DNA of 16,180 nt from a virus (taxonomy: Duplodnaviria > Heunggongvirae > Uroviricota > Caudoviricetes). The translations under genes were made by a program, and so were the position numbers. Each line of letters starts with the position of its first letter. Within the stretch, counting starts at the first letter, position 1. The stretch covers positions 1-16,180 of IMG/VR virus record IMGVR_UViG_2529292886_000014. One strand, 5' to 3'. Below are positions 5,432 to 16,180 of the stretch, piece after piece. Under the pieces are notes generated by a model. It saw only the letters and a program-made list of their open reading frames with translations, was not told the origin of the DNA and did no database searches.

Positions 5432-5442
5432 ACTTATGGAAT

Positions 5443-5667
5443 AACTGTTCACCACTGTTCACCCTGTCATAAATATCTTTTATATCAGTATATTATAGGG
5501 TGAACAGTTATTTATGAACTGTTCACCAAACTATTCACTGTTCACCTTTTTGATTGTTTATTGAGCTTCAAGGGTGAACAGTGGTGAACAGTTGGTGAAT
5601 AGTTTTTGTGAAACTGTTCACCCATTAACATTATGAATTAAAAGATAAAATATCAAAAGGTGAACAG
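5443..5667. repeat. Iteron array, putative origin of replication (P4 ori/crr-like)
   Basis: About 10 copies of the core TGTTCACC / GGTGAACA (often extended to AACTGTTCACC) in both orientations within 225 bp of AT-rich DNA: 5443-5453, 5454-5463, 5499-5509, 5517-5527, 5536-5546, 5573-5582, 5583-5593, 5594-5604 (degenerate), 5612-5622, 5659-5667. Confidence 0.75.
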
Positions 5668-5718
5668 GTGAAGGGTTAAAACGCAAAAATTTTAATTTAC
5701 TGCTGTGAGATAAAGCCT

Positions 5719-7036: not shown

Positions 7037-7056
7037 GTCATTTTTTGTAAATTATT

Positions 7057-7083
7057 TGTTCGTGGTTGTTCCACGTTGTTCAC
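7057..7083. promoter_or_regulatory. Dyad element TTGTT-CGTGG-TTGTT-CCACG-TTGTT upstream of the head operon
   Basis: CGTGG (7061-7065) and CCACG (7071-7075) are reverse complements, separated and flanked by TTGTT. A half-copy TTGTTCCACGTTGTT recurs at 14581-14595. Confidence 0.35.
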
Positions 7084-7263
7084 TGACAGGATCGGCATAT
7101 TTTACCCGAACTGAATCATGATTATTCTCGCCCGTGGTGCCAGGACGCTGGGGCCATTTTTCCCGCCTGTTAATGTGTTCACCAATATTCATTCATTACC
7201 AGGCGGGAAAGCAATCGGTGCGTTTACTGATTTCCTTATGAAAAAGCGTTGAGTTTTTGCCGC

Positions 7264-10284: not shown

Positions 10285-10619
10285 ACATAGGGCGACTGCG
10301 TGACAGGGTAACGATTCAGACCCTGAAACAGACCAGAGCCATGACGGGCGAAATACTCGAAACGTGGGAGGACGGTCACACACTCTGGGCAAGCGTGAAC
10401 ATGGTCAGCAGCAAGGAGGCCATTTCATCGGGTGCAGAGCTGGCGATTGGTACCGTAAGGATCTGGATACGGTACCGGAAGGACATCAACGCCACCAGCC
10501 GGATAAAGGTCAATACGGGGCCGCTGGCGGGGCGTGTACTGAATATCATCGGGCAGCCGCTGCCGGATGCCGCCAGGACACGCCTTGAAATTCTTTGTCG
10601 TGAGGGCGCGGAAAAATGA
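10281..10619 (+). CDS. Head-closure / head-tail joining protein (HK97 gp7-like)
   Basis: 112 aa from the ATG at 10281 (SD GAGGGAG; ATGA overlap with the portal stop). The N-terminus MNIGRLRDRVTIQ matches the head-tail joining family motif (recalled). Confidence 0.75.
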   Translation: MNIGRLRDRVTIQTLKQTRAMTGEILETWEDGHTLWASVNMVSSKEAISSGAELAIGTVRIWIRYRKDINATSRIKVNTGPLAGRVLNIIGQPLPDAARTRLEILCREGAEK

Positions 10620-11518: not shown

Positions 11519-11640
11519 TGAGGCAGCCGGACGGGGTGGGGGGAGTTTTCAGGACGAACCCGACCCCGCCCAGAACCGAACGCCTCCTCAAATTTTTATG
11601 CACGGGAATTTTTTGAAAAATAATCTGACGAAAAATAAGC

Positions 11641-13655: not shown

Positions 13656-13937
13656 ATGACAGAAGCCGAAATACTGCGATTAATCCGCCGCGTCTCTGGA
13701 ATCAGCCAGCAGGCTGACGAACAGACCACGCAGCCGGACAGCGTGACAGCCGAAAATTATGCGCGTGTTGTTGCTGAGGTGATGCGCCGTGATGGTATCC
13801 AGCTTAATGATGTGGATATGCGCGACATACGGATCCGCGTTCTGGAAATGCTGGCCTATCGTCGCCGCGTGGAGATGTATCGGGAGAAGGAAAAAATAAC
13901 GTACCACTGGAAGAAGCCGGAGCGCTTGCGGCGGTAA
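13656..13937 (+). CDS. Hypothetical protein (93 aa), last gene of the element
   Basis: ATG at 13656 with SD GAGGT about 7 nt upstream, 14 nt after the terL stop. Charged and helical; no family recognised. Confidence 0.5.
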   Translation: MTEAEILRLIRRVSGISQQADEQTTQPDSVTAENYARVVAEVMRRDGIQLNDVDMRDIRIRVLEMLAYRRRVEMYREKEKITYHWKKPERLRR

Positions 13938-14230
13938 CTGGTTGATATTCCCGACGGCCCAAAAATGGGTGGCTACATCCCTCGCTTCTGAGGACTGTTA
14001 ACAAGCTGCCTGAAAGACAGTCACAAACTACGAAATTTTCGCAGTTTAATTAATGGTCAGCTTAATCGCTAACCCGCTGATATTTTCGGAAACCTCAATT
14101 TGAGGAAGTCGGCGCGGTAACTCGCTGAACTTAAAGCAAAGCTCAAAATTGAGCTGGCTGAATAATCATTATGATTACGCAGATGATTAAGGAATGACCG
14201 AAGGCGGAAATTCGCCTGTGGTTGATGGGG

Positions 14231-14250
14231 GAGTTGCAGATCTGCAACTC
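14231..14250. repeat. 20-bp perfect palindrome GAGTTGCAGATCTGCAACTC
   Basis: Read directly; the reverse complement is identical. Embedded in an ORF-poor stretch with several other dyads. Confidence 0.8.
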
Positions 14251-14719
14251 GACCATGAAACTACGGAAACTACCCGTAGTTTGGGTAGTAAGAGTAACAC
14301 CCAGATTTTGGGGCTTACTCGTGATACCCAAATTTGGGGTATCGGTGGCAACCATAACGACTTTCGTTACGGTTGATGCTTTTACCCCATTGGGGGAAAG
14401 GTATTACGATAATCATAACACCTACCGAACAGGTAAAACCCACCAGCCTGATTAACAGTTAACCGGAAAAAAAACCAGGTGGCCCCGTTATGGGGATCCC
14501 CATATCGACATTAACGCCCCTCATGAATTGGTGTGCTTCCCCCTGGAAAGATTACCCGCCTGTATATTTCTTGTGTCTATTTGTTCCACGTTGTTTCATA
14601 CAGTGCACCGAACGGTGTAGTTAATGGTGTAGTTAATTTGCTGTTTTTAGCACTTTTTGTAGTGTGAGTTTTTTAATTAAATTAATGGGTTACTTTGCTG
14701 TGGTGATAAAAGGACATAT

Positions 14720-16180
14720 TTATTCATCTTTCGGCGTAGAATGCTGGCGACCAAAAATCACCTCCATCCGCGCACCGCCAAGCATGCTCTCTCCGGCGAC
14801 GATTTTACCCTCATATTGCTTGGTGATTTCGCGGGCTACCGCCAGCCCCACACCTTGCCCAGGGCGTAAAGTATCAACCCGTTGACCACGGTCGAAAATG
14901 ACCTCTCGCTTGCTTAATGGAATACCGGGGCCATCATCCTCGACCACAATATAGAGATGCTCGTCGGTTTGCCTTGCAGAAATTTCGACAAACTCGAGGC
15001 AATATTTACAGGCATTATCCAGTACATTGCCCATCACCTCGACAAAATCGTTCTGCTCACCGACAAAGCTGATCTCTGGCGAAATATCGAGAGAGATATT
15101 GACCCCTTTGCGTTGATACACTTTGTTCAGCGCCGAGGTGAGATTGTCCAGCAGTGGGGCGACCGGATGCAGCTCGCGGCTGAGCAATGTCCCGCCGTGC
15201 ATACTGGCACGATGCAGGTAGTAGCCAATTTGCTGTGAAATGCGGCTGATTTGCTCCAGCATTACCGGTTCAGCATCACTGACGCTCATCTTTTCACTAC
15301 GTAGAGAACGCAGCGTACTTTGCAGCACCGCCAGTGGCGTTTTCAGACTATGGGTCAGGTCGGTGAGCGTTGTACGATATTTGTCGTAACGTTCGCGTTC
15401 ACTTTTTAACAATCGGTTCAGGTTTCGTACCAGACTGGTCAGTTCTCGCGTTGTGGCTGGATTGAGCAATTCGCGGTTATGTTCTTCCAGTTCGCGGACT
15501 TCTTTTGCCAGGGCTTCGATGGGGCGTAAACTCCACCAGGCGGCGACCCACAGCAGCGGGATCACTAACAGCAGATTGGCTGAGAGCACATAGATAAACC
15601 AGCTCCAGACCATATAGGAACTTTTTAGCTCCACCGGAATGGTATCCACCACCACAATGGTTAACTTTGGCATCCGCGATGTTGCCGGGTAGACGTTTAC
15701 CGCCACCGAGTGGGTCATCTCCGCGTCGTCATCATCTTCCCGCACTTCCTGCAACTGTTGCTGTATCGAATGATCTCCACTCAGCAAGAGGCTGGTATCG
15801 TTAACATCCGCTTCAATTTCATGAAAACCATTCGATTTCAGCCAGTCAGGCTGGATCATCTTCATCAGCCAGGGCACGTCACGTTGCGCCCATAAAAGCT
15901 GCCCGTTCTCATCATAAATTAGCGTCATGGTGGGGCTTTGCTTGTCGATATTTTCGGGTAACTCGACATGCAACTTATTGTTTTCCCACTTCGCAAGGGT
16001 ATAGAACAGATTGCTCTCGCCACGTAACAGCCGAAACGTAGTTTTATCGAAACTGACGCTATAACCGATCAGCGCGACCATTCCGTAGGCAAGCGAAAGC
16101 ACCAGTACTACCGCTGCCGTTGCCAACAGAAAACGTACCCGCAGCGAGAGCGGGAAAAAAAGACGCAGTAATTTTTTCAT
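14720..16180 (-). CDS. phoQ: Sensor histidine kinase PhoQ (PhoP/PhoQ two-component system)
   Basis: 486-aa minus-strand ORF whose translation is near-identical to Escherichia coli PhoQ as I remember it: two transmembrane segments, periplasmic sensor with acidic patch EDDDDAE, HAMP, H-box LTHSLKTPL, ATPase G-boxes DDGPGI and GQGVGL. The window ends exactly at its start codon. Confidence 0.95.

Follow-up and report, generated by a model that had tools for sequence, protein, structure and literature searches.

Tandem roi/rha-operator-like units and a hairpin module in the non-coding right arm of an Escherichia coli capsid-forming phage-inducible chromosomal island

The subject of this article is the gene-free right arm, positions 13938-14719, of an Escherichia coli capsid-forming phage-inducible chromosomal island (cf-PICI, ~15 kb) that occupies the 3' end of phoQ, analysed here as a 16,180-nucleotide stretch of DNA (IMG/VR record IMGVR_UViG_2529292886_000014, hereafter the window). 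I propose, tentatively and with somewhat less than even confidence, that the arm is non-coding, protein-bound DNA whose left part (13935-14192) is made of operator mimics for IHF and for the Roi/Rha-type regulators of incoming phages, each unit apparently being an antisense copy of one short internal segment taken from a different roi, rha or antirepressor allele. Binding of these proteins to the units is predicted from the sequence; more speculatively, the units would serve as a decoy or sensor for several alleles, situated between the late operon of the island and its attP, with a separate block of hairpins and dyads, here called module D, seemingly inserted into the array, and with a final attP arm (14581-14719) that would serve integration and excision. 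Both the array of roi/rha-operator-like units and the very common hairpin module would be new.

The anatomy of the array is plain. Positions 13935-14192 are built of tandem ~48-bp units, with the array resuming at ~14385-14396, and in each unit an IHF-consensus-like box comes first and then, at a constant distance of ~17 bp, a palindrome that varies between units. Written as TAACnnGyTGATATTyyCG and then a short palindrome, this pattern has two exact matches in the arm, and with up to three mismatches allowed the whole window has five where 0.15 would be expected; when the IHF consensus (YAANNNNTTGATW / WATCAANNNNTTR) is scored, the fit is exact at 13935-13947. The same holds for the classical PICI EcCICFT073 of strain CFT073, whose arm contains three perfect IHF consensus matches (six in the locus against 1.2 expected). 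All of the array lies on the plus strand. Unit 1 (13935-13969) joins the box TAACTGGTTGATA (13935-13947), which overlaps the TAA stop codon of the 93-residue ORF that precedes the arm (ORF93) in islands at different attB sites alike, to the dyad CCCAAAAATGGG (13958-13969); it is an exact match to the unit pattern and its box-dyad distance falls in the class of 16.5-17.5 bp. Unit 2 (14070-14112) has the box TAACCCGCTGATA (14070-14082) and the palindrome CCTCAATTTGAGG (14093-14105) and is an antisense copy of the roi/Ant segment, and unit 3 (14118-14155), with a degenerate box TAACTCGCTGAAC and the palindrome AGCTCAAAATTGAGCT (14140-14155), repeats unit 2 directly at a spacing of 48 bp and 72% identity. 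Between units 1 and 2 lies a fragment (14026-14058) with the dyad CGAAATTTTCG that resembles genes for KilAC antirepressors and DNA-binding proteins, at 88-96% over 24-33 nt to Hafnia, Salmonella and Klebsiella phage genes, a match that is weak when taken alone (E 0.07-0.9). To the right of unit 3 follows a flank piece (14156-14192; CTGAAT, the dyad AATCATTATGATT, then ACGCAGATGATTAAGG) from a roi-like fragment family, which in locus L244, an island without module D, runs straight into CAACCATAACGA, and whose counterpart in loci L245 and L242 translates to Roi residues 57-68. Beyond module D, the array resumes with an inverted repeat at 14349-14396, where the hairpin CAACCATAACGA-CTT-TCGTTACGGTTG is followed by the dyad CCCCATTGGGGG, which on reading by eye is apparently related to the dyads CCCCCATTGGGGG and TTTCCACCATTGGTGGAAA of EcCICFT073, and these in turn match roi/anti-repressor genes (E 3e-5) and SSU5 Ant genes (E 1e-5).

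When the unit sequences were compared against a phage collection, they matched genes of a single family, in antisense orientation throughout. Over 35 nt, unit 2 (14078-14112) shows 91% identity (E 5e-4) to roi, anti-repressor or KilA genes in 40 phage records, including HK620, H-19B, HK75, HK140 and Stx phages, with tblastn returning the peptide RLPQIEVSE(N/R)I; unit 3 (AGCTCAAAATTGAGCT) is 82% identical over 39 nt (E 0.9) to the Rha genes of Sf101, 720R6 and phiKp_30; the classical H0 dyad, H0 being a part of module D, agrees with rha of HK639 at 19 of 19 nt (E 1); and a unit from the clade with a ~75% identical module D matches a Rha regulator at E 1e-3. Altogether four unit types reach E values of 1e-5 to 1e-3 against pRha-domain genes. 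The matched phage proteins have the Phage_pRha domain in common, and the matched segments fall at the same position of that domain in five proteins, which have different dyads there. The roi genes of HK022, HK620 and phi330 have a perfect IHF consensus at nt 153, and their dyads, which differ, are centred 17.0 bp away. Among the unique PICI units a spacing of 16.5-17.5 bp is found in 38 of 41, a statistic biased towards box-containing units by a catalogue that was gathered by the box pattern. The PICI copies have a broken reading frame and have kept box and dyad; no Rha/Roi remnant of at least 45 aa was found in ~245 loci, and neither a Phage_pRha nor an ANT domain turned up among the ORFs of the island that were scanned.

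Roi of HK022 reportedly binds a site within its own gene that adjoins an IHF site, the rha genes of phi80 and P22 are said to be related to roi, and in hosts deficient in IHF, Rha and Roi prevent phages from growing. I propose operator mimics because in the phage segment an allele-specific dyad and an IHF consensus lie exactly 17 bp apart, as is reported for HK022 Roi. The window units share this geometry with the intragenic operator of HK022 roi (and with phi80/P22 rha) as well as up to 91% identity over 35 nt with roi/rha/ant alleles whose dyads are allele-specific. However, they differ from the HK022 operator in lying outside pRha genes, being non-coding and running antisense to the island operon, so that an operator within its own gene, as for autoregulation, is not what the window contains; instead, several alleles stand in tandem on a satellite, where their binding is predicted and where no pRha protein is encoded by the island ORFs scanned. 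As an observation on the phage genes themselves, the roi alleles of HK022 (locus L254, 3656-4378), HK620 (L247, 335-1057) and phi330 (L250) keep the IHF consensus at nt 153, differ between alleles in their dyads (CTGCAATGCAG versus CCTCAATTTGAGG) and differ also in adjacent-helix residues, which looks like a regulator and an operator that co-vary.

Several points weigh against operator mimicry. The position given here to the operator within HK022 roi is a presumption drawn in part from the phage sequence, and several of the unit-phage matches are individually weak (E ~1), in addition to the bias in the spacing statistic mentioned above. Lambda is not known to have roi or rha, and neither gene was found in the nin region of HK106; the array is therefore not needed for mobilisation by those phages. 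HK106 has been described as the helper of the prototype cf-PICI. Both G.T and A.C mismatches occur in the dyads, which fits DNA sites and also weak constraint, and module D is left unexplained by the proposal and is absent from EcCICFT073, an island that is reported to transfer. A bolder version of the same idea, which I regard as doubtful, would have satellites keep a tandem operator-mimic "library" of helper-type Roi, Rha and antirepressor alleles with IHF sites, by which the amplified island DNA might titrate or sense these regulators; this would be a DNA-decoy layer in the satellite-phage conflict that evolves by swaps of 48-bp units, with module D as a further cis element or non-coding RNA. 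Among the decoy or titration sites on mobile elements, satellites with the cos of their helper likewise carry copies of a helper-phage cis site, but the known helper-cos copies serve packaging, whereas the site copied in the window is predicted to be the operator of a regulator. The sensing and manipulation of helper phages by PICIs and cf-PICIs is only partly known, and if the units do bind Roi/Rha and IHF, what satellites copy would be phage regulatory DNA and neither a protein nor a packaging signal. The Rha/Roi family, which is poorly understood, would then acquire a function as well.

The original prediction, made from the letters alone, had called this interval an ORF-poor right end packed with dyad symmetries of a protein-binding type, and all of the motifs that it named are present where it placed them. 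These comprise the two related near-palindromes CCTCAATTTGAGG and GCTCAAAATTGAGC (14141-14154), which turn out to be copies of dyads inside phage roi/rha genes, the 20-bp perfect palindrome GAGTTGCAGATCTGCAACTC (14231-14250), the interleaved arms CTACGG/CCGTAG and ACTACCC/GGGTAGT (14261-14289), a GAGTAA..TTACTC hairpin (14293-14320), the near-palindrome ATACCCAAATTTGGGGTAT (14324-14342), GGGGATCCCC (14492-14501), the border motif TTGTTCCACGTTGTT (14581-14595, with a further copy at 7066) and GGTGTAGTTAAT twice in tandem (14614-14637). Counting perfect stems that reach 6 bp and enclose a loop of at most 8, the arm has 21 stems that cover 161 nt, compared to 1.8 +/- 1.6 (maximum 8) in 500 mononucleotide shuffles and 0-8 in 34 other 782-nt segments of the same element, and the fold of 14185-14400 has a z score of -7.8 on the plus strand and -8.4 on the minus strand that no dinucleotide shuffle equals. 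The density of dyads is thus real, and the wording "protein-binding-type" fits the left half of the arm best. Similarly, the arm is poor in coding capacity, since its ORFs reach only 54-77 aa, have no match in scans of Pfam and PHROGs and carry no coding signal, with no frame having a surplus of third-position or synonymous changes in a six-frame comparison of two clades and a codon-position test. No match to the palindrome sequences was found in the literature searched.

The hairpin block that divides the array, module D, spans 14193-14348 with a conserved core of 130 nt (14219-14348), and is composed of H0 (14199-14224), the 20-bp palindrome already given, interleaved ACTAC/GTAGT arms (14260-14289), the GAGTAA..TTACTC hairpin and an ATACCC..GGGTAT hairpin that coincides with ATACCCAAATTTGGGGTAT. 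Some part of the 782-bp arm occurs in 1,385-1,579 of 5,426 complete E. coli genomes (~29%, which makes PICIs and cf-PICIs very common in this species), at least 80% of it in only ~180 genomes, and pieces of 40-130 bp are found separately in other islands. The core of module D is the most widespread of these pieces, at ~90-95% identity with a second clade at ~75% (fold z of ~-3.5 on both strands), and the module is present in more than 1,000 E. coli genomes, only at PICI right ends, where its hosts are classical Rpp- or TerS-type PICIs as well as cf-PICIs and where it always sits just downstream of an ORF93 homologue. No match to it was found in the phage collection, and among plasmid records only Escherichia ones matched. 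It behaves as an indel: in L244 the flanks CATCAAGG and CAACCATAACGA are contiguous, and EcCICFT073 likewise lacks it. Strongly conserved in over a thousand genomes, module D is unannotated in the records examined. In locus L133 (4520-5083), and also in L012, L032, L052, L084 and L224, two copies of module D stand ~434 bp apart and enclose an iteron-rich cassette, which in L133 holds TTGCGGGTTAT three times, an AT-rich stretch and ATAACCCGC three times, and which looks like a PICI-type origin of replication.

At the other end of the arm, the empty roxA-phoQ site of K-12 was aligned with both junctions of the related island in STEC299 and with the window, placing the crossover core of attR, GGACATAT, at ~14712-14719 (GG(A/G)CATA at 14712-14718), where it abuts the phoQ stop codon (14720-14722). 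This empty-site comparison, which had been suggested as a check, bears out the right border given originally. Furthermore, the block at 14581-14637 on the plus strand, made of TTGTTCCACGTTGTT and the two copies of GGTGTAGTTAAT, recurs at the left ends of islands at two different attB sites (L001 and L002), where a 58-bp copy with 76-84% identity stands upstream of int, and is also found in a clpS-site island; these repeats are probably arm-type sites of the integrase and/or AlpA sites, and 14581-14719 is predicted to be the attP/attR arm with a role in integration and excision. The attP sites of P4-like and PICI tyrosine integrases have a core matching attB/attL and arm-type repeats that flank it and come to lie near int in the circular form, as here, but in the window the att part accounts for only ~140 of 782 bp and the remainder is too distant from the core for an intasome. 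The suggestion that the interval is a recombination site stands for its last ~140 bp alone, with core and arm repeats. Next to this arm lies a segment (14433-14580) shared with EcCICFT073, with an A8 run and an inverted repeat, the 22-bp dyad CGTTATGGGGATCCCCATATCG (14486-14507); over 14433-14719 the identity to EcCICFT073, which uses the same attB, is 91%, and the dyad, which recurs in other PICI arms, is matched over 23 nt by non-coding sequence in a few phages (E 0.07). The A8 run (T8 on the minus strand) adjoins CGTTATGGGGATCCCCATATCG at 14467-14507, and together they could form a stop for phoQ transcripts entering the island. Part of the att-arm block (TTGTTC...TTGTTCCACGTTGT) is seen for a third time at 7040-7110, upstream of the capsid gene, and may be the site of a regulator, AlpA or Int, that is common to the late promoter and the att arms.

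Other explanations of the array and of the interval as a whole have to be weighed against operator mimicry. The array could be functionless recombination debris, pieces of roi, rha and ant genes left by exchange between PICIs and phages, with dyads that merely promote breakage and template switching, and although I consider this unlikely, several points speak for it: the arm is pieced together from 40-130-bp modules that are met apart from one another in other islands, module D behaves as an indel, lambda-type and HK106-type helpers have no roi, and the PICI copies have lost their reading frame. However, debris would not be expected to yield only one ~45-nt gene segment, in one orientation and in tandem with a ~48-bp period, nor to come from at least four different alleles with box, dyad and 17-bp spacing all intact and with no longer remnants in the ~245 loci. 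It is improbable that the units are fossil or secondary attachment sites, that is, identity segments from past integration into prophage roi/rha genes or targets of other elements; they are about as long as att identity segments (~40-50 bp), lie near an att end and pair a dyad with an IHF site in the manner of attP, but no island was seen integrated in a roi or rha gene, the true core and arm repeats are 500-780 bp away and unrelated in sequence, and unit 1 keeps to the ORF93 stop whichever attB site is used. Finally, it is hardly credible that the interval serves packaging, as a cos/pac site, which had been among the original suggestions, or replication. It is non-coding, rich in dyads, next to terminase genes and supplied with IHF-like boxes as in lambda cosB, yet there is no lambda-type cosN (GGGCGGCGACC) in the window, the arm lies downstream of terL, the hairpin block is common to islands with three different packaging systems, and EcCICFT073, which is reported to transfer, lacks module D, and whose cos sites have been shown to be functional, has its lambda-like cosN upstream of the ORF93 homologue and outside the arm; the packaging claim is thus set aside. 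A better candidate in the window is the gap between the HNH and TerS genes at 11519-11640, a G/C-rich gap that follows the HNH gene (and a small ORF) and leads to terS, and which by its position, where such modules usually have their cos, is probably the cos of an HK97-like packaging module; in an Rpp-type island, a cos-like sequence is found upstream of rpp. As for replication, the P4-type TGTTCACC iterons cluster at 5440-5680 (the cluster proper at 5446-5666) and none occurs in 13938-14719. Eleven of them, in both orientations, surround AT-rich DNA directly after the primase gene; this is the replication origin of the island, and the island iteron is that of phage P4 ori/crr. With the right border fixed and attP arm, origin and probable cos told apart, the map should be useful for engineering PICI-based delivery vehicles.

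The remaining alternatives concern transcripts and peptides from the hairpins. It is rather unlikely, but worth considering, that the hairpins, those of module D above all, act as RNA, forming a structured 3' end of the late-operon transcript (as a stabiliser, a processing site, an insulator or a non-coding RNA derived from the 3' untranslated region), which in the circular form would lie just upstream of attP and int. The fold z score of -7.8 speaks for it, as do the lack of a terminator between the ORF93 stop and the hairpin block, the two TACCC and two GGGTA motifs that permit alternative pairings, a weak match to the manA RNA (21.6 bits, E 0.008) and a precedent for phage-satellite small RNAs in Vibrio PLE. 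However, the z score is equally strong on the minus strand (-8.4), and in the covariation analysis proposed originally, RNAalifold on 41 unique module D sequences, most of whose pairs are invariant, gives a covariation term of -0.55 kcal/mol with any double change in only 4 of 46 predicted pairs, an uninformative outcome because the core is nearly invariant. In addition, variants that are frequent yield G.U when read from one strand and A.C from the other, and assigning a strand by such mismatches was abandoned when sites and clades contradicted each other, while the H0 stems, which differ between units, are equally compatible with DNA dyads. There is no promoter consensus in the arm, the only intrinsic terminator found in it is one weak site on the minus strand (fewer than in shuffles), the portion consulted of an Hfq-CRAC small RNA table lists no Hfq-bound small RNA in the O157 phoQ-site island, and EcCICFT073 does without module D. 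No family of Rfam comes up to threshold, and neither a tRNA nor a tmRNA was found. The multi-hairpin layout and a CUGAAUAA stretch of manA RNA (RF01745) do align over 14140-14309, but the score of 21.6 bits lies below the gathering threshold of 55.2 and the alignment lacks the pseudoknot arms, so that this segment is not a member. Of the suggested structured RNA, then, the extreme folding potential holds, and against it stand its equality on both strands, the slight covariation and the lack of an Rfam family, a promoter or a terminator. Very improbable is a small minus-strand protein read through module D (MRNDISSTD...ELQICN, 49-72 aa), even though its frame is open in the main and the 75% clades with a conserved ATG and a 9-nt indel that stays in frame. 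The ORF (..LGI(A/T)SKPQNLGVTLTTQTTGSFRSFMVELQICN..) occupies 14143-14355 in the window, 8931-9149 in L003 and 9008-9157 in L004, and the ATG lies just upstream of it in three different flank contexts. By eye no Shine-Dalgarno sequence precedes the ATG, the C-terminus changes with the flank, variable sites are distributed 12/6/10 by codon position with synonymous and non-synonymous counts like those of other frames, and the ORF has no Pfam or PHROGs match in a module that the records examined leave unannotated. A type I toxin, a plus-strand peptide beginning MKLRKL, was also rejected, since its ORF is cut short in the 75% clade and is without its ATG in one variant. Reading the sequence by eye, with no dedicated tool run, further led me to drop a Fur box at 14160-14178, Dam-site-centred palindromes, CsrA-type GGA motifs, boxB/nut-like hairpins, ends of module D resembling those of miniature inverted-repeat transposable elements, dif/cer sites and oriT nic motifs, for poor consensus or no enrichment.

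The arm described here is the end of an island whose genes run in a familiar order. From the left, the window encodes a tyrosine integrase (1-1230), AlpA, a DUF4222 protein, a P4-type primase, SSB and PerC, and then the late genes for major capsid protein, prohead protease, portal, head-completion proteins, HNH, TerS and TerL, closed by ORF93 (13656-13937, phrog_1561); Pfam matches among these ORFs are Terminase_4, HNH, AlpA, SSB and PerC. Beyond the right end of the island lies phoQ (14720-16180), on the minus strand and convergent. EcCIEDL933, with the same gene organisation, has been described as a capsid-forming PICI, and because the window is organised as one, 13938-14719 is the right gene-free arm of such an island. 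The STEC299 island, between roxA and phoQ, is 97% identical to the window over the right arm and is annotated with the same gene set and with no tail or lysis genes. Both cf-PICIs of the EcCIEDL933 family and classical E. coli PICIs such as EcCICFT073 likewise have an arm after the conserved ORF93, in the region known as a hotspot for accessory genes, but EcCICFT073 has the units without module D whereas the window has both, and the published descriptions of PICIs and cf-PICIs consulted here do not mention the right arm, the unit array or module D. A scan of genome contigs for distant relatives of ORF93 returned one locus, and only close E. coli relatives are among the 120 protein matches listed.

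Two further records touch on the distribution of the arm. The E. coli plasmid record NZ_CP148328.1, which at 10,790 bp is PICI-sized, carries module D at 10299-10418 and may be an excised circular island that was assembled as a replicon. A different satellite-like island, L252 (NZ_CM143728.1, 1-9829), encodes an AntA/AntB antirepressor, a ProQ/FinO protein, three PerC proteins and its own Q antiterminator, and pieces of the window's arm are present on both sides of the Q gene.

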